Shown: positions 137 to 58,832 of the stretch, piece by piece
Layout: the number at the start of each line of letters is the position of its first letter
Position numbering within the stretch: position 1 is the first letter of the stretch
Source: an uncultured Candidatus Saccharibacteria bacterium
GTDB lineage: Bacteria > Patescibacteriota > Doudnabacteria > UBA920
Length of the DNA: 64,000 bases
Direction of reading: 5' to 3'
NCBI GenBank assembly: GCA_964597895.1
Contig: CAZQZS010000001.1
Location: forward strand, 183,178-247,177
Position numbers and translations under genes: made by a program
Notes under the pieces: model-generated
What the model saw: only the letters and a program-made list of their open reading frames with translations
Told to the model about the DNA's origin: nothing
Databases searched by the model: none

Positions 137-541
137 ATGTTAATTCCAAAAAAGGTCAAACACCGCAAGCATCACCGCGGTCATAACAAGGGTAAAGCTA
201 CTTCCGGTAACACAATTGCTTTCGGCTCCTACGCTTTGAAGGCAATGGAAGGCCGCTTTGTTACTGCCCGCCAGATTGAAGCTGCTCGTCGCGCCATGAC
301 TCGTTCTGTACAGCGCGGTGGCAAAATCTGGATTCGTATTTTCCCAGACAAGCCGATTACCGATCACGGTAACGAATCTGTGATGGGTAGCGGTAAGGGT
401 GCGGTATCCCATTTCGTGGCTGTCGTAAAGAAAGGCCGTATTCTGTTTGAGATGGACGGTGTGAGCGAAGAAGCTGCTCGCGAAGCTATGCGCCTCGCAG
501 CGCACAAGTTGCCAGTAAAGTCCAAATTCCTAATTAAGTAA
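137..541 (+). CDS. rplP: 50S ribosomal protein L16
   Basis: 134 aa, [15 protein letters not shown]...; classic L16 N-terminus and operon position. Confidence 0.95.
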
Positions 542-542
542 T

Positions 543-725
543 ATGAAGTATTCATCATTATCCAAAAAGAAAGCCGAAGACATTCGTAAAGAATTGATTC
601 AGCTGCAAGAAAAGCGCGAGAACCTCAGAATGAAAGTGAAGCTGGGCCAGGTTAAGAATGCCCACGAACTTTCTGCGGTGCGCAAGGATATTGCTCGAAT
701 TCTAACTTACTTAAGAGCTAACTAA
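543..725 (+). CDS. rpmC: 50S ribosomal protein L29
   Basis: 60 aa, operon position between L16 and S17, K/E/R-rich helical protein. Confidence 0.85.
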   Translation: MKYSSLSKKKAEDIRKELIQLQEKRENLRMKVKLGQVKNAHELSAVRKDIARILTYLRAN

Positions 726-729
726 ACAT

Positions 730-972
730 ATGACTACAGCAACTAAGCAACAAATGACCGGCACTGTTATTTCCAACAAGATGGATAAAACAGTTGTGGT
801 AAAAGTAGATTTGGTAAAGCGTCACCCAAAGTATCACAAGAGCTATACCAAGTCCTACCGCTACAAAGCGCATGACGCAGACAACAGCTGTGAAATCGGA
901 GACAAAGTGGTAATTGAATCCATTCGTCCGATGAGCCGCGACAAGCGTTTCGCTGTTATTAAGAAAGTTTAA
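730..972 (+). CDS. rpsQ: 30S ribosomal protein S17
   Basis: 80 aa; GTVISNKMDKTVVVKV motif typical of S17. Confidence 0.9.
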   Translation: MTTATKQQMTGTVISNKMDKTVVVKVDLVKRHPKYHKSYTKSYRYKAHDADNSCEIGDKVVIESIRPMSRDKRFAVIKKV

Positions 973-984
973 TTAATTTATTCT

Positions 985-1093
985 CCGAGTCGTCTGGTCT
1001 TGCCAGCGACGAGGAAACCTCCGGAAAGGGGAGGCAGACCGCGAAGCGGTCGTTGGAAGGGGAAAACCCCTTCTGGGTTGTCCCCTCCAAAGA
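985..1093 (+). repeat. Family-A structured intergenic repeat, short variant, ends 8 nt before rplN ATG
   Basis: ccgagtcgtctggtcttgccagcgacgaggaaacctccggaaaggggaggcagaccgcgaagcggtcgttggaaggggaaaaccccttctgggttgtcccctccaaaga; three conserved hairpins. Confidence 0.8.
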
Positions 1094-1101
1094 ATACACC
1101 T

Positions 1102-1473
1102 ATGTTACAAATTCGTTCTTACATTAAAATTGCAGACAATACCGGCGCCAAGGTCGTCAACGTGTTTAGCGTGAACGGAAAGAATAACCGTCGCTTTGCT
1201 CGCGTTGGGGATGTTGTCGCGGGGTCTGTTCGCCAGGCTGCACCAAACGGTTCAGTTAAGAAAGGCGATAAGATTTACGCTGTGATTGTTCGGACCCGCA
1301 AGGAAATCCGCCGCAAGGACGGATCTTACATCCGCTTTGATGAGAACGCAGGTGTATTAGTAGATAAAGAAAAGGGCGAGCCAAAAGGCACCCGTATCTT
1401 TGGTCCAATCCCTCGCGAAGTTCGCGACGCAGGATTTACCAAGATTGCCTCTCTGGCGCCGGAAGTAATATAA
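1102..1473 (+). CDS. rplN: 50S ribosomal protein L14 (track ORF starts at 1000 inside the repeat; true start ATG at 1102)
   Basis: MLQIRSYIKIADNTGAK... canonical L14 N-terminus. Confidence 0.93.
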   Translation: MLQIRSYIKIADNTGAKVVNVFSVNGKNNRRFARVGDVVAGSVRQAAPNGSVKKGDKIYAVIVRTRKEIRRKDGSYIRFDENAGVLVDKEKGEPKGTRIFGPIPREVRDAGFTKIASLAPEVI

Positions 1474-1477
1474 ATCT

Positions 1478-1804
1478 ATGACTCAAGTAAAGCTCAAAAT
1501 TAAGAAAGGCGACACCGTAAAGGTATTGTCTGGCAAGGACAAAGGCAAGACTGGCAAAGTATTGCGCGTGCTTCCTAGTGTCCACAAGGTAGTCGTAGAG
1601 AACGTAAATGTTCACACTAAGTATGAACGTCCTCGTGGCACCCGCCAGCGCACTCCGCAGCAAATTTCCTTTGCAAGCCCAATGCCTGTTTCTAAAGTTA
1701 TGCTGGTTGATTCAAATTCCGGCAAGCCGACCCGCGTTGGATATCAGATTTTAGAAAACGGAACCAAGCAGCGCATCGCCAAGAAGAGCGGAAAAGCAGT
1801 CTAA
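1478..1804 (+). CDS. rplX: 50S ribosomal protein L24
   Basis: KIKKGDTVKVLSGKDKGKTGKV KOW motif. Confidence 0.92.
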   Translation: MTQVKLKIKKGDTVKVLSGKDKGKTGKVLRVLPSVHKVVVENVNVHTKYERPRGTRQRTPQQISFASPMPVSKVMLVDSNSGKPTRVGYQILENGTKQRIAKKSGKAV

Positions 1805-1816
1805 TAATATTTATTT

Positions 1817-2356
1817 ATGAATCGTTTACAAGAACAATATAATAAAGAGATTGCTCCAGCCTTGAAGGAAAAGTTCGGCTATACCAATGTAATGGCTGTG
1901 CCGAAAATCAAGCAGATCAATATCAATATCGGCGTTGGTAAGTACCTCAAAGACAATCGCTTTATGGAATCAATCCGCAAAGACCTGACAGCTTTGTCTG
2001 GTCAGAAGCCGGTTGAAACCAAAGCGCGCAAGTCTATCGCTGGATTCAAGATTCGTGATGGGCAGGTTGTCGGAATGACAGTCACCCTCCGCGGTCAGCG
2101 CATGTATGATTTTCTGGACAAGCTGATCAGTATCGGTCTTCCACGCGTGAAGGACTTCCGTGGTGTATCTAAGAAAGGCTTTGACCGCCGTGGTAATTAC
2201 AACCTCGGACTCAAGGAACATCTTGTTTTCCCGGAAATTTCCCAAGACGCGCTAGAACACATCTTTGGTCTGCAAATCACTATTGTTACTGACGCAGGCA
2301 AAGACGAGCCAGCTTACGAGCTGCTCAAAGCAATGAAGTTTCCATTTAAAGACTAA
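1817..2356 (+). CDS. rplE: 50S ribosomal protein L5
   Basis: 179 aa, NVMAVPKIKQININIGVG, L5 family. Confidence 0.93.
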   Translation: MNRLQEQYNKEIAPALKEKFGYTNVMAVPKIKQININIGVGKYLKDNRFMESIRKDLTALSGQKPVETKARKSIAGFKIRDGQVVGMTVTLRGQRMYDFLDKLISIGLPRVKDFRGVSKKGFDRRGNYNLGLKEHLVFPEISQDALEHIFGLQITIVTDAGKDEPAYELLKAMKFPFKD

Positions 2357-2378
2357 TCATTAAGTAACTAAATTTTCG

Positions 2379-2478
2379 CTTGGGCTAAGCCTGAGCCGAC
2401 CCGACGTAGTGTAACGAGGTGGGTCGCAGCGAAGGCGCCAGTTAAGCGAAAATTTAAGAGGAGTACTTGGCGGAGGGC
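2379..2478 (+). other. Structured element inside an unusually long (175 nt) rplE-rpsZ spacer; closed by perfect 12-bp stem aaattttcgctt/aagcgaaaattt
   Basis: Inverted repeat at 2379-2390 and 2467-2478 enclosing GC-rich inner hairpins (cgaccc...gggtcg). Confidence 0.5.
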
Positions 2479-2531
2479 GATAGGAATTAGCATTAGCTGA
2501 TACCGATAGCCCGGCAGACAAGTACGACGAT

Positions 2532-2726
2532 ATGGCTAAAAAGAGTTTAATCGCAAAAGCAAATCGCAGTTTGAAGAAACCGAAGTTCTCTTCTCGAGTA
2601 ATTCGGCGCTGTTTGAAGTGCGGCCGTAAAGCTGCTTTCATGAGAGATTTCTCTTTGTGCCGTATTTGTTTTAGAGAATTAGCTAGCCGCGGCGAAATCC
2701 CTGGCGTAGTAAAGGCCTCCTGGTAA
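2532..2726 (+). CDS. rpsZ: 30S ribosomal protein S14 type Z (zinc-binding, 4 Cys)
   Basis: 64 aa with CLKCGRK...CRICFRE. Confidence 0.9.
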
Positions 2727-2730
2727 AACT

Positions 2731-3123
2731 ATGTATACAGATCCAATTTCCGACATGTTAACAAGAATCCGCAATGGGCTTGCAGCAGGCAAGCAGGATT
2801 TGGTAATGCCTTACTCTAAGTACAAGCACAGCTTGGCTAAAGTATTGTTAGAAGAAGGCTTTCTCTCTGGCGTCAATGAGTTGCCTGGCCGCATCAAAAT
2901 GCTCCAGATCAATTTGAAGTATGATAACGGCGGTAGCCCGGTAATTTCTGGCATCAAGCGCGTTAGCACTCCAGGACAGCGCATTTACATGCCTGTCGGC
3001 AAGATTCCTCGCACTAACGGCGGCTACGGCGTGACAGTTGTTTCCACATCCAAAGGTCTAGTTACAGATAAGCGCGCCCGCAAGGATCGCATCGGCGGAG
3101 AAGTAATTTGCCAAATTTGGTAA
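2731..3123 (+). CDS. rpsH: 30S ribosomal protein S8
   Basis: DPISDMLTRIRNG N-terminus. Confidence 0.93.
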   Translation: MYTDPISDMLTRIRNGLAAGKQDLVMPYSKYKHSLAKVLLEEGFLSGVNELPGRIKMLQINLKYDNGGSPVISGIKRVSTPGQRIYMPVGKIPRTNGGYGVTVVSTSKGLVTDKRARKDRIGGEVICQIW

Positions 3124-3138
3124 AGGTTAATCAAATAT

Positions 3139-3720
3139 ATGAGTAGAGTAGGTAAAAAACCAGTCATTCTTCCAAACGGCATTACCGCCGAATTGAAAGA
3201 CAACACCCTGACCATCAAAGGTGGTAAAGGCAGTTTAACTATGACCGTTCATCCAAAAGTTACAGTTGAAATTAAGGATAACGAAGTCTCTGTTGATGTA
3301 GCAAAGAAAGAAGACAAGCGCGAAAAAGCTCTATGGGGCTTGTCCCGCGCTTTGGTTCAAAATATGGTTGATGGTCTGGAAAAAGGTTACAGCAAGCAGC
3401 TTGATGTAGTCGGTGTTGGTTTTAAAGCTGAAGTCCGCGGCAAAGATCTGGTTCTCAACTTAGGTTTCTCTCACCCAATTGAATTCCCAATTCCAGAAGG
3501 CATTGAAGTGAAGGCCGAAAAGGATCCAGCTAAAGTTACTATTCAGCAATATCAGACTACTATTACATTGACCGGTATTGATAAGCAGTTGGTTGGCCAG
3601 GTCGCAGCCAACATTCGCGAATTAAAGAAGCCAGAACCTTATAAGGGCAAGGGTATTCGTTATAGCGACGAAAACATCCTGCGCAAGGCTGGTAAAGTCG
3701 TTAAGGCGGTAGGTAAATAA
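3139..3720 (+). CDS. rplF: 50S ribosomal protein L6
   Basis: [15 protein letters not shown]... two-domain L6. Confidence 0.93.
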
Positions 3721-3721
3721 T

Positions 3722-4075
3722 ATGAACAAGATTCAGCATAAACAACTCAAGCATCAGCTCCGCAAGGGACGCGTGCGCAGCGTAGTTTCTGGGACCACTA
3801 GCCGGCCACGCCTGTCAGTGTTCCGCTCTAATGCTCACATCTCAGCCCAGATTATTGATGACGAAACCGGCAAGACCTTAGCATCCTCTTCTACTTCTAT
3901 TTTGAAAGCTTCTGGTAATAAAGTAGAGCAAGCAGTAGCAGTTGGTAAGGATATCGCTGCTAAAGCACAAGCTGCTGGCGTAAAGGCTGTCGTATTTGAC
4001 CGCGGCGGCTATAAGTATCATGGCCGCGTTAAAGCAATCGCTGATGGCGCTCGCGAAGCTGGCCTGCAATTTTAA
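3722..4075 (+). CDS. rplR: 50S ribosomal protein L18
   Basis: [20 protein letters not shown] motif. Confidence 0.92.
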
Positions 4076-4093
4076 TTCTAATTCTCAATAACT

Positions 4094-4594
4094 ATGGAAA
4101 AGAGATCTCGCAAACCGAATAATCGCACTCCGCAGCAGCCTCGTGAATTTGATCAGAAGGTTGTGGAAGTTAAGCGCGTCACCCGCGTAGTTGCTGGTGG
4201 TAAGCGCATGCGTTTCCGCGCTTTGGTGGTAATTGGTGACCACAAAGGCAAAGTTGGTATTGGTTTGAAAAAGGGGATGGACGTTACTGAGAGCGTCAAC
4301 AAAGCCGTGAATGCTGCAAAGAAGAACATGATTACTGTACCGATTGTTAACGATACGATTCCTCACGAAGTTAAAGTAAAGTACAAGTCCAGCAAACTCT
4401 TGATGATGCCTGCTCGTCCTGGTACTGGTGTAATTGCCGGTGGCGCTGTCCGTAGCGTTTTGGACATGGCTGGTATTAAGAACGTAATCAGCAAAATGGT
4501 TGGGTCTAACAATAAGACTAACAACGTTCGCGCTGCTTACGAAGCGTTCAAGATGATGCGCAGTAAAGAAGATATCTTGGCAGCCCGCAAATAA
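4094..4594 (+). CDS. rpsE: 30S ribosomal protein S5
   Basis: VTRVVAGGKRMRFRALVVIGD...; S5 dsRBD and C-terminal domain. Confidence 0.93.
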   Translation: MEKRSRKPNNRTPQQPREFDQKVVEVKRVTRVVAGGKRMRFRALVVIGDHKGKVGIGLKKGMDVTESVNKAVNAAKKNMITVPIVNDTIPHEVKVKYKSSKLLMMPARPGTGVIAGGAVRSVLDMAGIKNVISKMVGSNNKTNNVRAAYEAFKMMRSKEDILAARK

Positions 4595-4606
4595 CTAATT
4601 TAAACC

Positions 4607-4756
4607 CCGAGTCGTCTGGGTCTCCCAGCGACGAGGAAACTTAAGGAAAGGGGAGGCAGACCGCGAAGCGGTCGTTGGAAAGGGTCCGGGTTAAGTCCAA
4701 ACTTGATTTGGACTGCTAACCGGTGAAAACCCCTTCTGGGTTTTCCCCTCCAAAGA
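4607..4756 (+). repeat. Family-A structured intergenic repeat, long variant, occupying the position where rpmD (L30) normally sits; ends 5 nt before rplO ATG
   Basis: Near-identical to 1-131 over ~130 nt. Confidence 0.8.
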
Positions 4757-4761
4757 GATAT

Positions 4762-5196
4762 ATGATCAAGCTACACGATTTAAAACGTCATCCAAAATCA
4801 ACCAAGCGCCGCAAAGTTGTCGGTCGCGGTGTTGGTAGTGGACACGGTACCTATTCCACCCGCGGTGCCAAAGGTCAAAAGTCCCGCACCGGGCACTCCA
4901 AAACCCCAGCTCGCTTTGAAGGTGGCCGTCAACCGTTGATTCGCCAAGTGCCAAAGAGCCGCGGTTTTAAGAGCTTGCATGAAAGCGCGATGGCAGTGAG
5001 CGTTACTGCTCTCAATAAATTCGCCGACGGCGATGTTGTAACCATCGCAACCCTAAAGAAGGCAGGACTTATCCCAAGCACGGTTAATAGAGTCAAATTG
5101 CTCAAGGGTGATCTTAAGCGCAAGCTTACAGTCGGCGTCCCTGCGTCTGCGACAGCAAAAGAAGCTATCGAAAAAGCAGGCGGCAGCATTAAATAA
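4762..5196 (+). CDS. rplO: 50S ribosomal protein L15 (track ORF 4723 starts inside the repeat; true start 4762)
   Basis: MIKLHDLKRHPKSTKRRKVVGRGVGSGHG. Confidence 0.92.
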   Translation: MIKLHDLKRHPKSTKRRKVVGRGVGSGHGTYSTRGAKGQKSRTGHSKTPARFEGGRQPLIRQVPKSRGFKSLHESAMAVSVTALNKFADGDVVTIATLKKAGLIPSTVNRVKLLKGDLKRKLTVGVPASATAKEAIEKAGGSIK

Positions 5197-5241
5197 TAAA
5201 TTTTAAGATGCCATCTTTGCCTGTGACTAAGATGGCATCTA

Positions 5242-6534
5242 TTGTATAATACCAATATGAATAAACTCAGTTTAATTTGGAAAACTAAGGATTTGCGCTG
5301 GAAAATCACCATGGTGCTGATTCTCTTGCTGATGACCCGCGTTTTGGCGCACATCCCAATCCCTGGGGTTAGCGTAGAAGGTTTGCGGACTTTCTTTGAA
5401 AGCAACCAATTCTTGAATTTGTTGAATATTTTCTCTGGTGGTGGGCTGAGCAATTTTTCTATTGCTTTACTTGGTGTCGGTCCTTACATTACCGCATCTA
5501 TCATCATGCAACTCTTGGCCATGATCGTACCTTCACTGCAGGAATTGCAAAAGGAAAGCGGAGAAGCTGGTCGTACAAAAATCAACCAGTACACAAGATT
5601 CCTAACTATCCCATTAGCGATTTTGTCCGGATTCGGTACTATTCGCTTGCTGCAAAGCCAGGGCGGAGCAGAACTGCTCGGCGTGTTCACTCCTTTCCAG
5701 TGGTTTTTGACTTTGCTCGCGGTTACAGCCGGAACCATGCTAGTCATGTGGATCGGTGAAATTATTTCTGAGTACGGCATTGGTAATGGTATCTCTTTGG
5801 TAATTTTCGCAGGTATCGTTGCGCAGCTGCCAGCCAGCGCAGGCTCTTTGATTGAACTGTATGATCCAACTCAATTGCCGACAATTTTAGGTTTTGCTGC
5901 TGTCTCACTGCTGGTTATTGCTGGAGTGGTCTATGTAACTGAAGCTCAGCGGAATATTCCTGTATCTTATGCTAAACGCATGCAGGGTGAACGCCAGGTC
6001 GGCGGAGTCAGTTCTCATCTGCCTTTGCGTTTAAACCAAGCCGGTGTAATTCCAATCATCTTTGCCATTTCCTTGTTGCTGTTCCCAGCGATTATCGCCC
6101 AGTTCTTTGTGAACGCCAAAACTCCTTTGGTTGCAGAATGGGCGCAGAAAGCTATTGACTTCACTAATAATCAAGGGCTGTGGTACGGCGTGGCTTACTT
6201 CGTATTAGTGGTATTGTTCACCTATTTCTACACCAATATCGTGGTTAATCCTGATGATGTTTCCAAGAATATGCAGCGCAGCGGGGGCTTTATTCCTGGT
6301 ATTCGCCCGGGAAATCAGACAGCTGATTATCTTTATAAAGTGCTAAACCGCATTACCTTGCCTGGTTCGTTATTCCTTGGCACGATTGCTATTCTGCCGT
6401 TCTTGATGCAGACTTGGACAGGCACTCAAGCCTTAACATTCGGCGGTACCGGATTGCTTATTGTTGTATCGGTTGTCATTGAAAGTATCAAACAGGTTGA
6501 GGCACAACTTACAATGCACGATTACCAGAAATAA
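5242..6534 (+). CDS. secY: Preprotein translocase subunit SecY (start may be 5257)
   Basis: 430 aa, 10 TM segments, conserved plug and gate regions, operon position after L15. Confidence 0.93.
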   Translation: MYNTNMNKLSLIWKTKDLRWKITMVLILLLMTRVLAHIPIPGVSVEGLRTFFESNQFLNLLNIFSGGGLSNFSIALLGVGPYITASIIMQLLAMIVPSLQELQKESGEAGRTKINQYTRFLTIPLAILSGFGTIRLLQSQGGAELLGVFTPFQWFLTLLAVTAGTMLVMWIGEIISEYGIGNGISLVIFAGIVAQLPASAGSLIELYDPTQLPTILGFAAVSLLVIAGVVYVTEAQRNIPVSYAKRMQGERQVGGVSSHLPLRLNQAGVIPIIFAISLLLFPAIIAQFFVNAKTPLVAEWAQKAIDFTNNQGLWYGVAYFVLVVLFTYFYTNIVVNPDDVSKNMQRSGGFIPGIRPGNQTADYLYKVLNRITLPGSLFLGTIAILPFLMQTWTGTQALTFGGTGLLIVVSVVIESIKQVEAQLTMHDYQK

Positions 6535-6556
6535 AATTATTTTTGATTGCAAATTT

Positions 6557-6582
6557 AAACCCCCGCTGCGCGGGGGTTTTTG
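6557..6582 (+). terminator. Rho-independent terminator after secY
   Basis: cccccgctgcgcggggg followed by tttttg. Confidence 0.8.
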
Positions 6583-6589
6583 TATGTTC

Positions 6590-6672
6590 GACCGAGCTTG
6601 CCGCTCAAGCCGATGGGCTACGTTTCGCTTTCCGAAACTGGGCCCAGAGCCTTTCGCTTAGCAAGCTCGGTC
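6590..6672 (+). other. 83-nt structured element closed by perfect 12-bp stem gaccgagcttgc/gcaagctcggtc with nested inner hairpins
   Basis: Inverted repeats seen directly; inner gtttcg-ctttc-cgaaac and gggc/gccc pairs. Confidence 0.5.
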
Positions 6673-6705
6673 TCTAAAAGGGAGTTAGTAGATTCATGTG
6701 TTTTA

Positions 6706-6714
6706 TGGTATAAT
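6706..6714 (+). promoter_or_regulatory. Extended -10 promoter TGgTATAAT; ATG 9 nt downstream (leaderless transcript predicted)
   Basis: tggtataat at 6706-6714, ATG at 6724. Confidence 0.55.
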
Positions 6715-6723
6715 TTGGTCACT

Positions 6724-7047
6724 ATGGAACAAGAAAATAAAGAATTTCCTCAACATTTGGAACAACCCAATCATGAGTTTGCCGCACCAGAAAACTCTCC
6801 CATGCAAGAAACCGAAGGGTTCATTGTTGAGCTGCAGGTCACTGAAGCGGAAAAGCAAGAAATAGCCGAACAGCTGGCAGAACAGCAGCCGGTTGCTCCT
6901 ACCATACAGGAAGTAAAGGCAGCTGCAGTAGAACGCGCCCAGCAACAGGAAGAAATTGATAAAGCTCACGAGCATTTGCAAAAAGATAATGACATAGAAA
7001 CCAGCGGCGATGCCTATGAAATGATCAACGACTTAATGAATAACTAA
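6724..7047 (+). CDS. Small acidic hypothetical protein (108 aa; track ORF 6580 is an upstream extension)
   Basis: Start placed after the promoter; E/Q-rich, low complexity. Confidence 0.5.
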   Translation: MEQENKEFPQHLEQPNHEFAAPENSPMQETEGFIVELQVTEAEKQEIAEQLAEQQPVAPTIQEVKAAAVERAQQQEEIDKAHEHLQKDNDIETSGDAYEMINDLMNN

Positions 7048-7091
7048 GCTTCAGTCCGCAAATTACTTAAAACAAAAAGCAAAATTACCAA

Positions 7092-9650
7092 ATGTTATTT
7101 GGATTTGATATCAGCACGATACTTATAGCCACACTACTACTAGCGGTTTTAGTAGTAGTCTTTGTATTGGCGGCAATGTATTACATTCACAGATTTTGGT
7201 ATTACAAGCATGTGATTTTGCCTCGCACCAAAAATTGGGTGTTCTTGGAAATTCAAATGCCCAAAGACAATAGCGACGACAAAGAACGAACCTTGCGCGA
7301 TGAGGAAAAGAAAAAACTGATTGCTGTTGCAGAGCAGCTCTACACAACTTTGTCTGGCATAAGCCATGAGAACTGGTTTTGGCAGCCCAAGGATTACATC
7401 AGTTTTGAGATTGCCTGTTCGGCAAAAAAGATTTCCTTTTATATTAACTGTCCGAAGCATCTCCAGGATTTAATCGAAAAGCAGATACAAGCGCAGTATC
7501 CGCACGCATTTATTGAAGAGATTAAAGGCTATAACCCTTTTCCTAAAGCCGGCGAGCTGGCAGCCGCAGAGCTGCAGCTTAACAAGCCGTATGTTTACCC
7601 TTTGCGAACTTACGAAGACATGGAGTCTGATCCGCTTAATGCGCTGACTAACGCCATGTCAAAGTTATCAGAACAAGATGGCGCAGCTATTCAGATGATT
7701 TTGTATCCAGCCGGAACTCACTGGCAGCTCAAACCTCGTCACATGGCCTTGGAAATTCAGCAAGGCAAAAATCCAAATACCGTAGCGCAAAGCGCTAGCG
7801 GCCGGTTTGCGCGTGAGGTCGGCACTGGACTTAAGACCAGCGTTATGGGCAGCAGCAAGCCCAGCGCCGATCAAGCTCAGATGCGCACTGATTTAAGTGG
7901 CACTTATTCCGCTATCAACTTAACCCCGATGCAGCAGGAAATGGTAAAGCGCTTTGAAGAGAAAGCCAGCCGCCCAGGGTTCTTTACGAATATTAGAATT
8001 GTGACAGCTTCAGAAGTGCCGGGTCAGGCGCGCTTGCATCTGCAAAACATTACGGCGTCATTTTTGGAATACAATATGGCTCCGTTTAATGGTTTTCGCA
8101 TTAAGTCGCGCAAGAAGAAACGGATCGTCAAAGATTATATTTTCCGCATTTACCGCCGCTACGGGCGTAAAATGATTCTGAATACCGAAGAGTTGGCCAG
8201 TATCTGGCATTTACCAACTCCATACCTGGAAACGCCAAATATCAAATGGCTGTTGTCTAAAAAGGCTCCGGCACCAGTGAATTTAGCCGAAGAAGGCTTA
8301 CTGCTCGGCCGCAACGTTTACCGCGGGGTGGAAACGAAGATTCATATCGCCAAAGAAGATCGCCGGCGCCACATGTATATTCTGGGCCGAACCGGTGTTG
8401 GTAAAACCGAAATCATGAAGTATATGGCCGTTCAAGATATCGCCAACGGAGAAGGACTTTGTATTATTGATCCGCACGGCGATTTTATAGAAGACGTTTT
8501 GCCTCATATTCCTAAGCACCGTGCCGAGGATGTAATTTTATTTGACCCTTCAGATACGGAGCGACCACTGGGACTGAACATGCTTGAGGTGAATAGGGAA
8601 GAGCAAAAGGATTTTGCGGTTCAGGAGATGATTTCTATTTTTTACAAGCTGGTAACCGACCCGGCCATGCTTGGTCCAATGTTTGAGCATAACATGCGTA
8701 ACGCAATGCTCACGCTCATGGCCGACAAGGAGCATCCGGGCACGATTGTAGAGATTCCTAGAATCTTTACAGACATGGAATTTCAAAAGTACAAAGTTTC
8801 CAAAGTTGCCGATCCAGTCGTTCGCGCGTTTTGGGAAAAAGAAATGGCTAAAACTTCTGACTTCCATAAATCAGAAATGCTCGGTTACTTGATTTCTAAA
8901 GTTGGCAGGTTCGTAGAGAATAGCATGATGCGCAATATTGTCGGGCAGGCGAAAAGTTCGTTCAACTTCCGCGACATCATGGATAGCCAAAAAATCTTGC
9001 TCGTGAATCTGGCTAAGGGCAAGATTGGGGAGATGAATGCCAAGCTGCTAGGTTTGATTATTGTCTCTAAGATTCAAATGGCGGCATTGAGCAGAGCTGA
9101 TCAGCCCGAAGATCAGCGCCGAGATTTTTACTTGTACGTTGATGAGTTTCAGAATTTCATCACTGATGCTTTTTCGTCAATCTTAAGCGAAGCGCGCAAA
9201 TACAAACTCAACTTAATTATTGCCCATCAATTTTTGGCGCAGCTTCAGCAAGCAGCAGGCGCGCAGGGCGCGGCCAGCCAAGACTTGCGCGATGCGGTAT
9301 TCGGCAATACTGGCTCCATGTTAAGTTTTCGCATCGGTGTTGAGGATGCCGAAGTAATGGCCAAAGAGTTTGCGCCAACTTTTAACGAGTTTGATTTGCT
9401 CAACATAGAACGCTATAACGCGTTTGTGAAGCTGATGGTGAATGGTTCTGCTTCTAAGCCGTTCAATATGTCGACTTATCCTTTACCCAAAGCCATAGCC
9501 GAACAAAAGCAGACGGCTGAGGCAATCAGACAGCTTTCTAGGCTAAAATATGGACGAGCTCAAGCCGAGGTAGAAGCGGGGATTTTACGGGCTAGTCAGA
9601 TTGCAGATATGATGGCAGCCGGGACAGCCACTACCGAAAAAACCTTATAA
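7092..9650 (+). CDS. Membrane-anchored P-loop ATPase, type IV coupling protein-like (VirD4/TraG family), with unusually long 400-aa pre-Walker-A region
   Basis: N-terminal TM helix; Walker A LGRTGVGKTE; DPHGDF; Walker B YLYVDEFQNF; SEARKYKLNLIIAHQFLAQL resembles T4CP RKYG/Q..QL C-terminal motif. Confidence 0.65.
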   Translation: MLFGFDISTILIATLLLAVLVVVFVLAAMYYIHRFWYYKHVILPRTKNWVFLEIQMPKDNSDDKERTLRDEEKKKLIAVAEQLYTTLSGISHENWFWQPKDYISFEIACSAKKISFYINCPKHLQDLIEKQIQAQYPHAFIEEIKGYNPFPKAGELAAAELQLNKPYVYPLRTYEDMESDPLNALTNAMSKLSEQDGAAIQMILYPAGTHWQLKPRHMALEIQQGKNPNTVAQSASGRFAREVGTGLKTSVMGSSKPSADQAQMRTDLSGTYSAINLTPMQQEMVKRFEEKASRPGFFTNIRIVTASEVPGQARLHLQNITASFLEYNMAPFNGFRIKSRKKKRIVKDYIFRIYRRYGRKMILNTEELASIWHLPTPYLETPNIKWLLSKKAPAPVNLAEEGLLLGRNVYRGVETKIHIAKEDRRRHMYILGRTGVGKTEIMKYMAVQDIANGEGLCIIDPHGDFIEDVLPHIPKHRAEDVILFDPSDTERPLGLNMLEVNREEQKDFAVQEMISIFYKLVTDPAMLGPMFEHNMRNAMLTLMADKEHPGTIVEIPRIFTDMEFQKYKVSKVADPVVRAFWEKEMAKTSDFHKSEMLGYLISKVGRFVENSMMRNIVGQAKSSFNFRDIMDSQKILLVNLAKGKIGEMNAKLLGLIIVSKIQMAALSRADQPEDQRRDFYLYVDEFQNFITDAFSSILSEARKYKLNLIIAHQFLAQLQQAAGAQGAASQDLRDAVFGNTGSMLSFRIGVEDAEVMAKEFAPTFNEFDLLNIERYNAFVKLMVNGSASKPFNMSTYPLPKAIAEQKQTAEAIRQLSRLKYGRAQAEVEAGILRASQIADMMAAGTATTEKTL

Positions 9651-14798: not shown

Positions 14799-14934
14799 TT
14801 TGGCCAATTTCTTTGTCGTCAGCTCCGCTACTCGTTCACCGTAACTTTCATTACGACTCACTCGTTGCTCGCTGACTCCTGGCTCGCGATGGTCGGGCTT
14901 TGCCCGACCAAGCTCGTGTCGAACTTGACTCAAA
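14799..14934 (+). repeat. Family-C structured intergenic repeat, copy 1, with extra ggtcgggc-ttt-gcccgacc hairpin
   Basis: Shares ttggccaatttctttgtc...ctcgttcaccgtaacttNcattacgRctcactcgKtgctc...gaacttgRctcaaa with 17303-17400. Confidence 0.8.
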
Positions 14935-17302: not shown

Positions 17303-17400
17303 TTTGGCCAATTTCTTTGTCACCAGTTCCGCTCCTCGTTCACCGTAACTTTTATTACGGCTCACTCGGTGCTCACTGGTTTCGCGAACTTGGCTCAAAA
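17303..17400 (+). repeat. Family-C structured intergenic repeat, copy 2
   Basis: See 14799-14934; conserved hairpin cgtaa-cttttat-ttacg at 17344-17359. Confidence 0.8.
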
Positions 17401-22127: not shown

Positions 22128-22810
22128 TGGGCAAGTTAATCGTCGCTAACTGGAAACTTAATCCGCTCACCGAACGTGAAGCCATCTCTTTGTCTGAGCG
22201 CATCAAGCAGGTTAGCCCGTATGAAGTTGTTCTTTGTCCGCCATTGGCTTTTTTGAATTCGGTAAAGTATCTTCATCTGGGAGCACAGGATGTCTCCCCT
22301 CAAATTAAGGGACCATATACAGGACAGGTGTCAGCGAGCCATCTTGCCAGTTTGGACGTTAAGTATTGCATCGTAGGACACAGCGAGCGCAGAGCGATGG
22401 GTGAGAGGGACGATTTGATTAACCAAAAATTGCAGGCTTTAGTTCATTACAAAATTACTCCAATCCTTTGCGTAGGCTACGGTACTACGGTTAGTCAGGA
22501 TGAGTTAGAGGTCACTGATGTGCTAGGCTCTCAATTGAACCAGGATTTGGACGGCATAGATCCAAAAAAGATAATCGTTGCTTATGAGCCGGTCTGGGCG
22601 ATCGGCAGCGGCCGGGCAGCTACACCTGAACATGCCGAGCAAATAGCTTTGTACATTCAAACTAAGTTCGGAGTCAAGAAAGTTTTGTATGGAGGTAGCG
22701 TTAACAGTACCAACAGCGAAGCATTTTTGTCGCAGCATCATATTGATGGTTTGCTGGTCGGGGGAGCCTCTCTATTGCCAGATGACTTTAATAAGATAAT
22801 AAGAGCATGA
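22124..22810 (+). CDS. tpiA: Triose-phosphate isomerase
   Basis: ANWKLN, VGHSERR, AYEPVWAIG motifs. Confidence 0.9.
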   Translation: MMGKLIVANWKLNPLTEREAISLSERIKQVSPYEVVLCPPLAFLNSVKYLHLGAQDVSPQIKGPYTGQVSASHLASLDVKYCIVGHSERRAMGERDDLINQKLQALVHYKITPILCVGYGTTVSQDELEVTDVLGSQLNQDLDGIDPKKIIVAYEPVWAIGSGRAATPEHAEQIALYIQTKFGVKKVLYGGSVNSTNSEAFLSQHHIDGLLVGGASLLPDDFNKIIRA

Positions 22811-22817
22811 ATCAATT

Positions 22818-22978
22818 TCGCTCATTTGGCTTCAGTCGGAAGTAAATTCCAACCTTCAGCCAAATATCGCCCCTTTGGGGTTTAACCAATTGCTTCGTTA
22901 TTTTCCTCGGAACCCTGTCATCGTAGCTTTACTACGACTCCAGAGTTCCTCGGAAAATGCCTCGCACTTGGCTAAACG
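22818..22978 (+). repeat. Family-B structured intergenic repeat, copy 1 (contains terminator-like gcccctttggggttt and conserved hairpin cgtag-cttta-ctacg)
   Basis: Shares ~80 nt near-identity with 33974-34040 and a core related to family C. Confidence 0.8.
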
Positions 22979-23008
22979 AAAACGATTCATGTAAAAAGTA
23001 AGCATATA

Positions 23009-23458
23009 ATGATTTATATTGCAGCCGACCACGGCGGATTTAAACTTAAACAGCATCTAGTGAAGTTTTTGCAAAAGCAAAAGCTTGAGTTTAAAGATCT
23101 CGGTCCGGCAAAATTTAAAGACGGCGATGACTATCCTGAGTACGGCTCCAAGGTCGCGAGGCAGGTTTCCAAAAATCCTGTCAGCAATCTTGGCATATTG
23201 ATTTGCCGCAGTGGGCAAGGCATGTGCATCGTTGCCAACAAGTTTATTGGCGTGAGAGCAGCTTTGGCCTGGAATACAGCTTCCGCAAAACAGAGCCGCA
23301 ATGATGATATGGCTAATGTATTGTGTTTACCTAGTGATTTTCTTAACAGCCAGCAGGCCGAAGATATACTGAAAGCATGGCTGAATACACCTTATTCTAG
23401 CGACGCTCGCCATATGAGAAGAATTAAAAAAATAAGCAAATTAGAGGAGTCCTTGTGA
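23009..23458 (+). CDS. rpiB: Ribose-5-phosphate isomerase B
   Basis: MIYIAADHGG...ICRSGQGM RpiB/LacAB signature. Confidence 0.88.
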   Translation: MIYIAADHGGFKLKQHLVKFLQKQKLEFKDLGPAKFKDGDDYPEYGSKVARQVSKNPVSNLGILICRSGQGMCIVANKFIGVRAALAWNTASAKQSRNDDMANVLCLPSDFLNSQQAEDILKAWLNTPYSSDARHMRRIKKISKLEESL

Positions 23459-29230: not shown

Positions 29231-29349
29231 AAAACCGACCTCTTTACAAGGCCGGTTGGTTGGTTACATCAACACGTAGAAGATGTAAACTATGATCAGC
29301 GCGCCAACAACATTGAAGGCGACTAAAAATCTGAGAGGAGATATGCGTG

Positions 29350-29469
29350 CTAACCGTTCCATATCAACACAATACCTCCTATGATGAGCATCACAATGAT
29401 GATAGTCACCGTTACGCTGTCGGGAATTTGCAGCTTATCTTCGTCCGCGATTTTAGGATTCAGATTCAT
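29350..29469 (-). CDS. Candidate small membrane protein (39 aa) antisense to the gap-pgk spacer
   Basis: GAGGAGG 11 nt upstream of ATG; one TM helix; followed on minus strand by hairpin aaccggcct/aggtcggtt plus tttt at 29231-29262. Confidence 0.35.
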   Translation of the reverse strand: MNLNPKIADEDKLQIPDSVTVTIIIVMLIIGGIVLIWNG

Positions 29470-29532
29470 TTCATGTTAGTCCTCCTCAGGCATGGGAATT
29501 CAGCATCAATATTAAACCATAATTTAATATAA

Positions 29533-32333: not shown

Positions 32334-33933
32334 AAAAATTGTACTAATAGTATTGGATGGTTTTGGGGTCGCAACTTACAGTCATGGGAATGCGATTGCT
32401 ATGGCAAATCCGGAAGCTTTGAACGACATGATCGCTAACTATCCATCCCTCACATTACTAGCTTCAGGTCCAGTGGTTGGTTTGCCTTGGGGGGAAATGG
32501 GCAACTCCGAAGTTGGTCACTTAAACATGGGAGCGGGCCGTATAGTGGGCCAGGATTTACCTCGTATAAACACGGCGATTTCTAACCGCTCATTTTTTAG
32601 CAACCAGATTTTGCTGGACTCTATTGAGCATGTTAAAAAGAATAGCTCTAAGCTGCATTTGATCGGTCTTGTTAGCGAGGGTGGCGTGCACGGCAGCAGC
32701 GAGCATCTATATGCGTTACTGGCATTGGCTGCTGAGCAGGGTATTAAAGATGTCTTTATTCATATGATTACTGATGGGCGCGACACTGGTCCGAAAGTTG
32801 CCTTAGATGCTTTGCGCAAATTGCGAACTAAAATTGAAGAAATTGGCGTAGGGAAAGTCGCAACCATAACTGGAAGATTTTATGCCATGGACCGTGGTGG
32901 CCATTGGGAACAAACTATGGCAGCTTACCGGGCAATGGTTTTTGGAAGTGGTTCAGCTGCGGAGACTGCCGAAGATGCTGTGCTTAACAATTACAATCAG
33001 AATGTTTTTGATGAAATGATCCCTCCAACCGTTATCGTAGACCGGTCTGATAGTAGCCAAATAAAGCCAACAGCAGTAATCGGTTCAAATGACTCAGTTA
33101 TTTTTTATAATTTTCGCTCTGACCGAGCCTTACAGTTAACTGAAGCATTTATGAAGCCAGAAGCGGTGCCAGCAGAACCTGGTCCGGCGCATCTGGATAA
33201 TTTGTTTTTCGTGACCATGACCGAGTATTTTGAAGATTTGCCCGTACACGTAGCCTTTCCGCCAACGAATTTGCAGAACAATCTGGCAGAAGTTTTGGCT
33301 GCTAACGGTCTTAAACAGTATCATATTGCAGAAACAGAAAAGTACGCCCATGTTACTTCATTCTTTAACGGCGGCGCCAGCGAGTCTTTGATTGGAGAAC
33401 AGCGGACAATTGTGCAAAGCCCGGTGAATGATAAGAATTACGTTGACCGTCCGGAGATGTCTGGGTTGGAAATCACCACTAAGCTGATAGAAAAGATTAC
33501 TAACGAAGACTTTTCCTTTTATTTAGCCAACTTTGCCAACGCCGATATGGTTGGCCATACAGGTAGTATTGATTCTGCCACCAAGGCTATTCAGTATTTG
33601 GACAGATTTTTGGAGCAAATTCGCCGAGCTGCTTTGGATGCCGGTGCTTTACTCCTGATCACTGCTGATCATGGCAACGCAGAGTATATGATTGAATCTA
33701 AAACCGGTGATATCAATAAAGAGCACACTACCAGCCCAGTGCCATTTGTAGTTGTGGCTAAAGAGCTGGCCTTTCACAAGCCCAAGCAGCGCAATTATTT
33801 ATCCCTTTCCGGGATGGTTCCTTCGGGGGTAATTTCGGATATTGCGCCTACTATTTTAGAATTTTTTGGCATAGACAAGCCAAAAGAAATGACTGCCGTG
33901 AGTTTGGTGGAGCAGATTGAATCGCAATTGTGA
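32317..33933 (+). CDS. gpmI: 2,3-bisphosphoglycerate-independent phosphoglycerate mutase
   Basis: LIVLDGFG, SEVGHLNMGAGR metal-site motifs. Confidence 0.93.
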   Translation: MIKTYKKIVLIVLDGFGVATYSHGNAIAMANPEALNDMIANYPSLTLLASGPVVGLPWGEMGNSEVGHLNMGAGRIVGQDLPRINTAISNRSFFSNQILLDSIEHVKKNSSKLHLIGLVSEGGVHGSSEHLYALLALAAEQGIKDVFIHMITDGRDTGPKVALDALRKLRTKIEEIGVGKVATITGRFYAMDRGGHWEQTMAAYRAMVFGSGSAAETAEDAVLNNYNQNVFDEMIPPTVIVDRSDSSQIKPTAVIGSNDSVIFYNFRSDRALQLTEAFMKPEAVPAEPGPAHLDNLFFVTMTEYFEDLPVHVAFPPTNLQNNLAEVLAANGLKQYHIAETEKYAHVTSFFNGGASESLIGEQRTIVQSPVNDKNYVDRPEMSGLEITTKLIEKITNEDFSFYLANFANADMVGHTGSIDSATKAIQYLDRFLEQIRRAALDAGALLLITADHGNAEYMIESKTGDINKEHTTSPVPFVVVAKELAFHKPKQRNYLSLSGMVPSGVISDIAPTILEFFGIDKPKEMTAVSLVEQIESQL

Positions 33934-33973
33934 TCAGATTTGGTTATGCTATGATGGAAAGGTTAGAACTCTG

Positions 33974-34136
33974 TCGCTCATTTGGCTTAAGTTGTAAGTA
34001 AATTCCAACTTTCAGCCAAATATCGCCCCTTCGGGGTTTAGTCAATTTCATTGTCATCGGCTTCCGTTACTCATTCATCGTACTATTAAGTACGACTCAT
34101 TCGTTACTCAGCCGATTCCTCGAGCTTGACTAAACG
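33974..34136 (+). repeat. Family-B structured intergenic repeat, copy 2 (gccccttcggggttt; hairpin cgtac-tattaa-gtacg)
   Basis: See 22818-22978. Confidence 0.8.
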
Positions 34137-34163
34137 CCAGTGTTCTAGGTATTTAAGTAGATT

Positions 34164-35966
34164 ATGGCGAAACACTGGCAGCTCAAAAATTCAGTTCCTG
34201 CAAATATTGTGGAGCAATTCCCCGAATTATCTAGTTTGCAGGTCCAATTACTCTATAATTTAGGTTTGTCCGATCCTGATCGGGTAGACTGGTTTTTAAA
34301 TCCGGATTACCACAATTTGTATGATCCGTTTTTATTTAGCCAAATGCAGGCAGCCGTTGACCGCACCTGGGAAGCAATCGCTAAAAACCAAAAAATTCTT
34401 ATTTATGGCGACTATGATGCTGATGCTGTGACTGCGAATGCTCTCTTGACGCAAACATTCCGGTATTTAGGCGTTCAGGTGGAAAGCTATATTCCAGACC
34501 GATTTAGTGAAGGATACGGACTCAATTTAGAGGCCTTTCAAAAAATCAAAGACCAGGGCGTTGAGGTGGTAATTACGGTTGATTGCGGTACTAACTCGGT
34601 TGCCGAAGCTGAATTCTGCAAGCAGAACGGCATTGATTTGATTATTACGGACCACCATGAAATAACCGGTAGTATCCCCGATGCATTTGCTTTGGTTAAT
34701 CCAAAAAATCCCGAGGAGCTTTATCCGGACAAGCAGATTACGGGAGTCGGGGTAGCTTACAAGTTTGCCAAAGCTTTACTGAGCGATCATGATAAGGTTA
34801 TCACCCAGCGCGGCATAGACCCTGCTGAGCATATCCCAGAATGGGATAAGTGGCTACTAGATTTAGTTGCCATTGGTACCGTAGCTGACTGCCATTCCTT
34901 ACTGGGCGAAAACCGTATCTTAGTAAAATTTGGTTTAAAAGTATTACAGAAAACTAAGTGGCTTGGTTTGCGGTTGCTTATGGAAAACGCAGGTATTGAT
35001 GTGAATAAGAAAGTTCCCGATACAGTTACTCTTGGGTTCACTATTGCGCCTCGGATTAATGCTGCCGGACGCTTGGAGCATGCCAATGTCGCCTTGGATT
35101 TATTGACTACATCCGATTATGCCCAGGCAATTGATTTGGCAAATCGTATTGAGGAAATCAATCGTCGCCGGCAAGATATCACGGCGCGCATGGTTTCGGA
35201 AGCCAAAGAAAAAGCCGAGAACATTGCCGACCGAAAGATTTTAGTCTTGTCGGACTCTGCTTGGCCAAAGGGCGTGGTTGGTATAGTTGCTGGAAAGCTG
35301 GCTGATTTTTATCAAAAACCGGTGATTGTTTTGGAGCGAGGCGAAACCGAGAGTACCGGCAGCGCCCGCAGCGCCCGCGGTTTTGATATCGTGGCAGCGC
35401 TTAAAGCTGTCAGTGAACACTTATCCCGTTTTGGCGGTCATAAGGAAGCTGCTGGCTTAACTTTGGCCAATGAGAAGTTTGATGAATTTTACCTTAGCTT
35501 ATTGAAGTATGCCGAGACGCATTGGCCCGAAGAATTGCCCGAAGCGGTGTTGGAGGTTGACGCTGAGCTGGGGGAGGCCGATTTATCCTTTGACCGCTAC
35601 GAGGAGATTGAATCGCTTGAACCTCACGGCGCGGGCAACCCTAAGCCCAAGTTTTTGATTTCCGAATTAACCTTAGCCGGTTTTCGCACTGTTGGCGCCA
35701 CGCAAAGCCATTTGCAGATGCAGCTGATGTGCGGCGAAAAATTGGTGGAGACCATAGGGTTTGGCCTGGGCTTTTGGGCTGGTCAGCTAGAAGTTGGGCA
35801 AAATTTAAACTTAGTGGCCGAACTGATAGTGGATTCATGGAATGGCACCAAAAAATTGAAATTAAGAATTATTGATTTAAAAATCCTCCCCGTAGTAGCG
35901 GCGAGCGAAGAAAGTACGATAGAAGATGAATCAACCAAACAAGTCGAGCAGACGCCTGTTTCTTAG
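34164..35966 (+). CDS. recJ: Single-stranded-DNA-specific exonuclease RecJ
   Basis: DHH motifs (GDYDADAV, DHH) and DHHA1. Confidence 0.9.
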   Translation: MAKHWQLKNSVPANIVEQFPELSSLQVQLLYNLGLSDPDRVDWFLNPDYHNLYDPFLFSQMQAAVDRTWEAIAKNQKILIYGDYDADAVTANALLTQTFRYLGVQVESYIPDRFSEGYGLNLEAFQKIKDQGVEVVITVDCGTNSVAEAEFCKQNGIDLIITDHHEITGSIPDAFALVNPKNPEELYPDKQITGVGVAYKFAKALLSDHDKVITQRGIDPAEHIPEWDKWLLDLVAIGTVADCHSLLGENRILVKFGLKVLQKTKWLGLRLLMENAGIDVNKKVPDTVTLGFTIAPRINAAGRLEHANVALDLLTTSDYAQAIDLANRIEEINRRRQDITARMVSEAKEKAENIADRKILVLSDSAWPKGVVGIVAGKLADFYQKPVIVLERGETESTGSARSARGFDIVAALKAVSEHLSRFGGHKEAAGLTLANEKFDEFYLSLLKYAETHWPEELPEAVLEVDAELGEADLSFDRYEEIESLEPHGAGNPKPKFLISELTLAGFRTVGATQSHLQMQLMCGEKLVETIGFGLGFWAGQLEVGQNLNLVAELIVDSWNGTKKLKLRIIDLKILPVVAASEESTIEDESTKQVEQTPVS

Positions 35967-49326: not shown

Positions 49327-49431
49327 TGGAGAGGGCGCCGGGATTTGAACCCGGACCTTGGCCTAAGTTGGCCTGCCTCTGGGGAGGTACAGTTTTCAAG
49401 ACTGTTGCTTTTTCCATTAAGCTACGCCCCC
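49327..49431 (-). tRNA. tRNA-Ser(UGA)-like, 105 nt, with abnormal 34-nt variable region
   Basis: Acceptor GGGGGCG/CGCCCTC, D arm GCTT-AATGGAAA-AAGC, anticodon arm ACAGT-CTTGAAA-ACTGT, T arm CCGGG-TTCAAAT-CCCGG, encoded CCA. Confidence 0.7.
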
Positions 49432-51148: not shown

Positions 51149-51246
51149 ATCTGGCTTTGCCAGGGTCTGAGCACCCAAGGAAAGGGGAGGCAGGAGCGAA
51201 GCGACGTTGGAAGGAGAAAACCCTTCCCGGGTTTTCTCCTCCAAAC
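51149..51246 (+). repeat. Family-A structured repeat, divergent copy, ending at the mraZ ATG
   Basis: tctggctttgccag...ggaaaggggaggcag...ttggaaggagaaaaccc...gggttttctcctccaaa; compensatory changes in hairpins. Confidence 0.7.
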
Positions 51247-51684
51247 TGTCTTATGTTTATCGGTGAATTTCAAGCATCAATTGATGATAAGGCCCGCGTG
51301 GCAATCCCAGCCAAGTTCCGCAGTTCTTTGAAATCAAAGGTCGTAGTAACCAGAGGGTTGGATAACTCCTTGGTTCTGTACACATTAGACGAATGGAAGA
51401 AGCTTGCCGAGAAGGTGGCTAGTCTCCCAATTTCTACTGCCAACACGCGCGCTTTTTCTCGTCTGATGCTTGCAGGAGCAATGGATTGCGATATTGATAA
51501 GCAGGGTCGCATTGTCATTCCAGGCTACCTCAAGGAATTTGCCAAGATTTCCAAAAAGCTTGTTTTCGCCGGTCTTTATAACCGCGTGGAAATTTGGAGC
51601 GACGAAGCTTGGCAAAAATACAAAACACAAACAGAAAAACAAAGCAATCAAATTGCCGAACAATTGGGTGATCTAGGAGTATAA
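51247..51684 (+). CDS. mraZ: Transcriptional regulator MraZ (track ORF 51157 starts inside repeat)
   Basis: MFIGEFQASIDDKARVAIPAKFR and second SpoVT/AbrB-like repeat. Confidence 0.9.
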   Translation, partial: CLMFIGEFQASIDDKARVAIPAKFRSSLKSKVVVTRGLDNSLVLYTLDEWKKLAEKVASLPISTANTRAFSRLMLAGAMDCDIDKQGRIVIPGYLKEFAKISKKLVFAGLYNRVEIWSDEAWQKYKTQTEKQSNQIAEQLGDLGV

Positions 51685-58545: not shown

Positions 58546-58620
58546 TGGCTGGGGTACCAGGATTCGAACCTGGGAATGAGCGGACCAAAACCGCTTGCCT
58601 TACCACTTGGCTATACCCCA
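58546..58620 (-). tRNA. tRNA-Gln(UUG)
   Basis: Cloverleaf: acceptor TGGGGTA/TACCCCA, anticodon arm AGCGG-TTTTGGT-CCGCT, T arm CCAGG-TTCGAAT-CCTGG, G73+CCA. Confidence 0.85.
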
Positions 58621-58696
58621 ATATATAATTTTCTGATTCGTTTGCCTGTGTCCGCTCTGAGCGGACCTCTATAATATAACGGCTACTGGCGTAAGC

Positions 58697-58731: not shown

Positions 58732-58832
58732 ATAATTTTCAATTAGCCTTGATATGATACCGAAAATAGTGGTTTTTGGCAAGAATGCGCGCGTTTTTGT
58801 ATGGTATAATTTACCTATATTTAACAAGATTT

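Follow-up and report, generated by a model that had tools for sequence, protein, structure and literature searches.

The repeats at the tpiA|rpiB and gpmI|recJ junctions (B1 and B2) and two related repeats (C1 and C2), all located in the 64-kb stretch of DNA analysed here (the window), are probably copies of a Patescibacteria-wide family of fold-back MITEs, i.e. non-autonomous transposon derivatives. They do not serve tpiA or gpmI as dedicated terminators or regulators.

Hairpin copies in the window and their insertion sites

The four window copies represent one imperfect, unbranched hairpin of ~95-105 nt. An nhmmer search of the 64-kb window with a profile built from the four copies returned exactly these four sites with E values of 1e-22 to 3e-25, followed by a next match at E 0.76. 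In a repeat search, an 84-nt direct repeat with 87% identity was found between 22818-22901 and 33974-34057, and the segment 34038-34113 was grouped with 14799-14874 and 17303-17378, which belong to the two C copies. The B segments at 22818-22978 and 33974-34136, as described in an earlier sequence-only reading, are confirmed, and the proposal made there that the B and C repeats form one superfamily of structured elements is borne out, as both share one homologous hairpin with massively covarying stems. The segments are thus real, but the true size of the B elements is larger than given there, as they are ~185-nt composites with an outer stem. All four copies share one orientation and are located in spacers between genes of the plus strand. 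Their parts are as follows.

22806-22991, plus strand: composite element B1, with the outer arms CATGAATCAATTTCG (22806-22820) and CGAAAACGATTCATG (22977-22991)
22824-22865, minus strand: accessory hairpin of B1, ATTTGGCT...AGCCAAAT with the loop GAAGTAAATTC
22870-22880, no strand assigned: small GC hairpin of B1, CCCC-TTT-GGGG, the motif previously regarded as terminator-like
22881-22976, minus strand: core long hairpin of B1 (cmsearch 90.3 bits, E 2e-19), with the apical stem-loop at 22918-22940
33964-34147, plus strand: composite element B2, with the outer arms TAGAACTCTGTCG (33964-33976) and CGCCAGTGTTCTA (34135-34147)
33980-34021, minus strand: accessory hairpin of B2
34026-34036, no strand assigned: small GC hairpin of B2, CCCC-TTC-GGGG
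34037-34134, minus strand: core long hairpin of B2 (cmsearch 81.4 bits), with the apical stem-loop at 34075-34098
14799-14934, minus strand: core long hairpin of C1, with an extra GC hairpin (14891-14909) within the basal internal loop
17294-17409, minus strand: long hairpin of C2, consisting of the core (17303-17399) and the outer stem TGTTGTAAATTT.../...AAATTTCCAACA

Inside the B composites, the outer stem is followed by the accessory hairpin, the 4-pair GC hairpin and then the core, and the stop codon of tpiA (TGA, 22808-22810) lies inside the left outer arm of B1. The accessory hairpin, termed the B module, occurs in eight copies from four genomes, always directly adjoins the core and has covarying stems. 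The hairpin of C1 is lengthened on both sides by a copy-specific AT-rich outer stem, and its GC-hairpin variant is also present in the loci L048, L057 and L064 from other genomes. The outer inverted arms of B1, C1 and C2 are specific for the respective copy. Overall, the cores measure 95-105 nt and the composites 130-185 nt, and no ORF is contained in the element.

The window comes from an organism resembling Doudnabacteria. A view on the corresponding gene junctions in relatives shows large differences in spacer length. Relatives that share the gene order and whose TIM is 90% or 86% identical have no spacer between tpiA and rpiB, the two genes overlapping by 4 nt (ATGA), compared with a spacer of 198 nt in the window. 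At gpmI|recJ, the window spacer harbouring B2 measures 230 nt, and those of relatives (GpmI 84-94% identical) measure 52-54 nt. The respective values are 194 nt versus 16 or 8 nt for the spacer of C1, and 162 nt versus 39 or 37 nt for that of C2. A search of 52 kb from the relatives of the window with the covariance model R1 gave no match. As judged at the sequence level, all four window copies are lineage-specific insertions, the sites of which are empty in relatives. Since the presence of a copy varies between close relatives, none of the copies is essential by itself. The window region 392-7353 is syntenic with locus L064 (UBA926), which carries elements at the S8|L6, L6|L18 and L18|S5 junctions of the spc ribosomal-protein operon, where the window spacers measure ~12-20 nt. 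One of these spc-operon elements is 84% identical to B1 over 141 nt, and the elements at S8|L6 of L064 and L057 are ~93% identical to each other, which is too alike to show selection in situ.

Some other spacers of the window also show features of their own. A different repeat, termed family A, contains the hairpin GGAGAAAACCC...GGGTTTTCTCC and occurs at 1-129, 970-1093, 4592-4756 and 51206-51247; it occupies spacers within the ribosomal-protein cluster and probably represents a further family of mobile hairpins. Two GC-rich, apparently structured spacers of the ribosomal cluster (2358-2527 and 6540-6690) lie at or near the sites of the core elements in L064, and the latter includes a terminator-like AAACCCCCGC...GCGGGGGTTTTTG. 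The ~300-nt gap|pgk spacer (29231-29532) has kept its length in two relatives (303 and 297 nt) and is conserved in sequence only at its ends, with a hairpin behind gap and an AT-rich block in front of pgk. Just upstream of B2, a promoter-like TTGTGA-16-TATGAT is found at 33928-33955. The TATGAT and the following sequence are conserved before recJ in relatives, and B2 is inserted between this motif and the start codon of recJ.

Consensus structure, covariation and strand asymmetry

On the folding strand, the core reads 5'-GCCAAG-UUC-GAGGC-[variable stem]-GA-[variable stem]-GA-GCCGUA-N-loop-N'-UACGGU-GA-[variable stem]-AACAAA-GAA-A-UUGGC-3', which includes tandem G·A mismatches and an asymmetric basal loop. 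Hairpins of three kinds may be attached: the B module, a GC hairpin and one reading CCGGA-GCAAG-UCCGG. The MAFFT alignment, which comprises 43 sequences taken from other genomes, contains 25 consensus pairs, 17 of which show double changes. Over the whole hairpin, 93.8% of the cells are paired, compared with 69% after shuffling and 31-40% with slid partners, and the 282 double-change cells observed (versus 95 in shuffles) were reached by none of 500 shuffles. The apical pair covaries between the window copies as the sequence-only reading had stated (G-C at 22926/22932, C-G at 34083/34090, A-T in C1 and C2), and the same column contains GC in 16, CG in 13, UA in 8 and AU in 5 cases when further genomic copies are aligned (43 sequences). 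Note that 22 of the 81 matches of the covariance model fall outside the sequence pattern used for searching, yet keep the same loops and apical stem, and the conservation of these parts is therefore no artefact of the pattern. These pattern-independent copies include a compensatory exchange to CCUUAC/GUAAGG in the otherwise constant CGUA/UACG.

The covariation had originally been taken to indicate selection on base pairing. It is indeed massive, but this interpretation needs the caveat that the elements are fold-back transposable elements, in which templated correction at the DNA level is possible. Palindromes can stay complementary by quasipalindrome-templated correction, which is an established DNA-level process and could yield some of the compensatory changes without selection. 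Templated correction would also erase the conserved asymmetric loops, yet these persist. Assignments of the conserved loops to known RNA motifs were not successful. As read from the alignment, a K-turn or box C/D-like interpretation of the GA motifs was not adopted, because GA/GA at the apex forms a symmetric 2x2 loop, and a 3-nt bulge beside a tandem GA is missing from the basal loop GAGGC/AACAAA. A T-loop interpretation of GUUCGA was rejected because its middle U covaries with a partner (UA 30, GC 5, AU 5).

The earlier reading was silent on the strand. In the window, the best-folding strand is the minus strand, i.e. the one antisense to the genes, as indicated by MFE values for the minus and plus strands of -86.5/-56.6 (B1, 22811-22990), -74.4/-60.8, -59.6/-46.0 and -45.5/-33.9 kcal/mol for the four copies. 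The antisense strand is also the more stable one in 71 of 73 copies in total (mean MFE of -40.3 vs -31.7 kcal/mol). After deduplication of the copies at 90% identity (62 rows), the non-apical pairs comprise 61 G·U versus 14 A·C (p 4e-8) and the mismatches 54 purine-purine versus 13 pyrimidine-pyrimidine combinations, while the unpaired columns on the model strand consist of 41% A and 31% G, i.e. 72% purine. The pair beside the apical GA follows as C-G in C2, U·G on the antisense strand in C1, and T-A in B1 and B2. As judged from crude ORF calls for 70 scored copies, the folding strand runs antisense to the genes on either side in 44 cases and sense to them in 8, with 17 mixed cases, and the young copies of the MAG JBAZQK01 already show this bias (8 to 2). 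A contrary sign comes from the small GC hairpin of the B module, which in 6 of 8 copies has a UUCG or UCCG loop when read on the sense strand.

The gene strand of the window has a positive GC skew. Since C-to-T pressure on the gene strand would put G·T on the sense strand and the opposite is seen, we infer selection on the asymmetry. A DDE transposase acting on double-stranded ends requires terminal repeats only, and the conservation of the internal loops and the apical stem across classes, as well as the strand asymmetry, are therefore left unexplained by transposition of this type. The strong strand may serve either the element or its host as single-stranded RNA or DNA. Alternatively, the only insertions tolerated may be those which place the weak, pyrimidine-mismatched strand in the mRNA and the lagging-strand template, and stable hairpins on the latter would provoke deletion.

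Distribution and association with an IS701-type transposon

An exact-pattern scan covering 185,579 species, each represented by one genome, yielded 66 loci, 53 of which come from ~30 MAGs of Patescibacteria, many of them containing multiple copies. The hosts are affiliated with Saccharibacteria, Paceibacteria (Kaiser-, Yanofsky- and Zambryskibacteria), Doudna- and Kerfeldbacteria, UBA926 and others. The 13 scan matches outside of Patescibacteria were discarded as chance hits, as they scored at most 17 bits with the covariance model, compared with ~25-99 bits (most >45) for the accepted copies. With the covariance model R1, 81 matches were found in 464 kb, and scan and model together gave ~80 copies in ~30 Patescibacteria genomes and none elsewhere. 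A phage as vector was also dismissed, since a collection of viral contigs gave two chance matches to the pattern and none to the model.

At the gathering score, no Rfam family falls on the element in the 64-kb window, with only two tRNAs passing, and when matches with E values up to 10 were admitted for 22780-23010, the best ones reached 14-15 bits with miRNA or snoRNA models that have thresholds of 85-104 bits. The element is therefore not among the RNA motifs of Rfam, including those from candidate phyla. A literature search on MITEs, REPs and RNA motifs of Patescibacteria, CPR or Saccharibacteria found no description of the element. The family is real and well-defined, is apparently undescribed so far, and probably consists of fold-back MITEs specific to Patescibacteria.

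Two observations on tRNA genes of the window are added here. A tRNA match to Rfam at 49330-49431 (minus strand, 62 bits) with a 31-nt extra arm is not reported by ARAGORN; its anticodon loop CUUGAAA leads to the anticodon UGA, which would make it a tRNA of the Ser type, with a long variable arm. The 5' half of the tRNA-Gln gene (58546-58620, minus strand) is duplicated exactly over 32 nt (58592-58623 and 58703-58734, 111 nt apart), with a small GC hairpin between the duplicates, which looks like a tRNA-adjoining insertion duplicating the tRNA end.

The young copies of the family reveal its termini. The MAG JBAZQK01 contains 14 near-identical copies of ~165 nt, two of them in the JACRFM01 assembly. 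They are bounded by TAGGACTTACG(G/C)G...C(C/G)CGTAAGTCCTA, representing the terminal inverted repeat TAGGACTTACGCG, and most copies compensate the G/C variant on the opposite arm. Perfect 5-bp direct duplications are found just outside of 9 of these 14 copies (attat, actaa, tttag twice, tagcc, aaata, cataa, ttatt and ctagt), and 5-bp duplications also occur at the loci L008 (aattc), L087 and L101 (tatat) and L114 (tttaa). The terminal repeat flanks the core in JBAZQK01, L044, L051, L061 and L035, which include MAGs of Saccharibacteria. In a metagenome scan, it was recovered from more than 120 contigs around many different fold-back cargos, several of them with 5-bp duplications. Among the metagenome loci carrying the terminal repeat, no more than 12 out of 80 also contain the core, indicating that core and terminal repeat are separable modules; the core is one cargo or module of an IS701-type transposon system.

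In the metagenome contigs, the same terminal repeat also bounds an IS of 1,072 bp (locus L134, 1190-2261) which encodes a DDE transposase of 325 amino acids with matches to the Pfam families DDE_Tnp_1 (2e-10), DDE_Tnp_2 (5e-10) and DDE_5 (3e-7). The transposase is found in six more loci (L072, L127, L084, L174, L171 and L071), but neither in the window nor in the loci L001-L066 was a transposase gene detected. A search for its homologues gave 3,278 sequences at E <= 1e-20, among them entries called 'IS701 family transposase' and 'transposase [Patescibacteria group bacterium]'. A second MITE of ~140 nt in JBAZQK01, which shares the terminal repeat, is derived from the IS by internal deletion. 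As additional observations, the transposase homologues are mostly located on contigs of ~1.1 kb, which suggests that the IS is very abundant in Patescibacteria of groundwater and sediment, and other fold-backs of 100-150 nt with the same terminal repeat and unrelated palindromic interiors are seen in L005 (3568-3710), L008 (3094-3235), L083, L101, L113, L114, L117 and L123.

Among the window copies, the outer arms TAGAACTCTGTCG...CGCCAGTGTTCTA of B2 represent a diverged copy of the terminal repeat TAGGACTTACGCG. Since no clean target duplication is visible at any of the four and the terminal repeat is recognisable in B2 only, their assignment as MITEs is based on homology and on the empty sites. 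In the proposed scheme, the IS701-family DDE transposase would cut and paste the subfamilies with TAGGACTTACGCG ends in trans; the terminal repeats, the duplications and the IS are observed as such, and we infer the mobilisation in trans. The preferred targets would be AT-rich spacers close behind stop codons, of which 5 bp are duplicated, and the outer inverted repeat would close the whole element. The window copies may be regarded as old insertions which have lost the duplications and whose outer repeats have either diverged (B2) or become unrecognisable (B1, C1, C2), and they would now be part of the gene transcripts, as hairpins between cistrons or in the 3'-UTR, in the orientation that folds weakly.

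Comparison with known elements and alternative interpretations

The elements resemble the ERIC/IRU MITEs of Enterobacteriaceae and Vibrio and the Correia elements of Neisseria, which are also intergenic, multi-copy imperfect palindromes of 100-160 nt with terminal inverted repeats, short target duplications and long RNA hairpins, are present or absent between related genomes, and are known to be co-transcribed with neighbouring genes (PMC3184786, PMC2229807). However, the elements described here show no sequence similarity to either of these, occur in Patescibacteria only but in several classes thereof, and produce a 5-bp duplication instead of TA. Further differences are the IS701-family partner, the combination of a core with exchangeable accessory hairpins, and the strand-asymmetric, purine-looped core with its antisense bias. 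As to the IS701-family IS, the 1.07-kb IS ends in exactly the 13-17-nt terminal repeat TAGGACTTACGCG(T)TTG that bounds the young copies, whereas the hairpin core shares only ~17-20 terminal bases with it, and the window copies have lost or diverged the repeat. The unbranched hairpin with conserved internal loops and covarying stems is also reminiscent of the candidate RNA motifs in Rfam, although no family matches. The TIGR-Tas arrays, consisting of tandem 36-nt arrays, are unrelated (PMC12045711).

REP and BIME sequences are likewise extragenic palindromes after genes and have been proposed to stabilise mRNA; REPs measure 20-40 nt, carry a terminal GTAG or CGTC tag, are not flanked by target duplications and are associated with a Y1 transposase (PMC3733652, PMC12306157). 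The elements described here were not assigned to the REP/RAYT type, as they measure 100-185 nt, have target duplications and lack a fixed GTAG tag, the base after the apical CGTA being G, C, A or T. An interpretation as single-strand DNA hairpins of the REP/RAYT, IS200/IS605-PATE or integron attC type, moved by an HUH or tyrosine recombinase, would account for a strand-specific hairpin with G·T and G·A mismatches, the biased orientation and the sites just downstream of genes. In integrons, the bottom strand, which is antisense to the cassette gene, is in fact the folding strand. Nevertheless, we consider this interpretation highly unlikely, because such mechanisms do not give 5-bp duplications or terminal inverted repeats in common with a DDE IS, and the size of 100-185 nt is out of the range of REPs. 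As read from the sequence, the stem base consists of GCCAAG.../...UUGGC rather than the attC core sites RYYYAAC/GTTRRRY, and the flanking genes are housekeeping genes in conserved synteny. Moreover, as judged from the positive GC skew, the folding strand of leading-strand genes is the leading-strand template, not the exposed lagging-strand template.

Even less credible is the suggestion of the sequence-only reading that the B elements are intrinsic terminators ending the tpiA and gpmI transcripts. In its favour, the elements lie a few bases to ~30 nt past stop codons and contain GC hairpins. A consensus terminator scan found no site in either B region (22700-23100 and 33850-34250), and the gcccc-ttNg-gggg motif, which had been called intrinsic-terminator-like, forms a stem of four pairs followed by only three T, compared with the GC-rich stem of at least five pairs with a directly following U-tract expected for a simple terminator. 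Runs of at least four U after the full hairpin are not found on the folding strand, and occur in 8% of the copies on the gene-sense strand. The same composite is also present between cistrons of the spc ribosomal-protein operon in L064, and relatives do without any element at these junctions, with tpiA and rpiB even overlapping there.

A more serious alternative is that the core acts first and foremost as a structured RNA with a function of its own (an antisense small RNA or a protein-binding RNA module), with the transposon features being a mere vehicle; the antisense-strand RNA would then bind a conserved protein of Patescibacteria or act on antisense transcripts. This would be consistent with the massive covariation, with the non-Watson-Crick loops being conserved even in copies outside the search pattern, and with the excess of G·U over A·C (61 vs 14) and of unpaired purines (72%), which runs opposite to the C-to-T pressure on a G-rich sense strand. 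The orientation bias of 44 to 8 points in the same direction, as does the occurrence of the core with different outer repeats and accessory modules, which identifies the core as the conserved unit. However, no conserved promoter or terminator flanks the core, and inspection of its conserved parts by eye gave no convincing internal promoter. Most copies are antisense inside operons, including those for ribosomal proteins, where antisense transcription would be rare; in addition, copies are present or absent among close relatives and have no match in Rfam. G·T and tandem G·A pairs are also the most stable mismatches in DNA, and the asymmetry therefore does not prove an RNA. On balance, a primary RNA function appears unlikely, and the MITE interpretation is preferred. 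An intermediate version, in which the core is a genuine structured antisense-strand RNA that is spread by the IS701-type MITE vehicle and kept for a function, is somewhat less doubtful but still not what we would expect. The features of the core to be named here are its G·U pairs, the tandem G·A (sheared when read as RNA) and internal loops rich in A, to which some subfamilies add a GNRA apical loop. Possible roles of such an RNA would be the recruitment of a conserved protein or RNase to antisense transcripts or the marking of gene ends in regulator-poor genomes.

Genomes of Patescibacteria are minimal and tightly packed and are usually described as poor in mobile DNA. The family of fold-back MITEs described here shows that they do carry a widespread hairpin MITE together with an IS701-family partner. 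The elements separate genes that otherwise overlap and are translationally coupled, tpiA and rpiB being an example, and occur even in ribosomal-protein operons. In genome annotation, repeats of this type should not be labelled as terminators, riboswitches or gene-specific regulators. With a core that is conserved across classes, has an RNA-like strand asymmetry and is consistently antisense to genes, the family also offers a tractable case for asking whether selection on a mobile hairpin acts via RNA, via single-stranded DNA or via host tolerance. If the RNA reading were true, it would represent a phylum-wide mobile RNA module, and not merely junk DNA.
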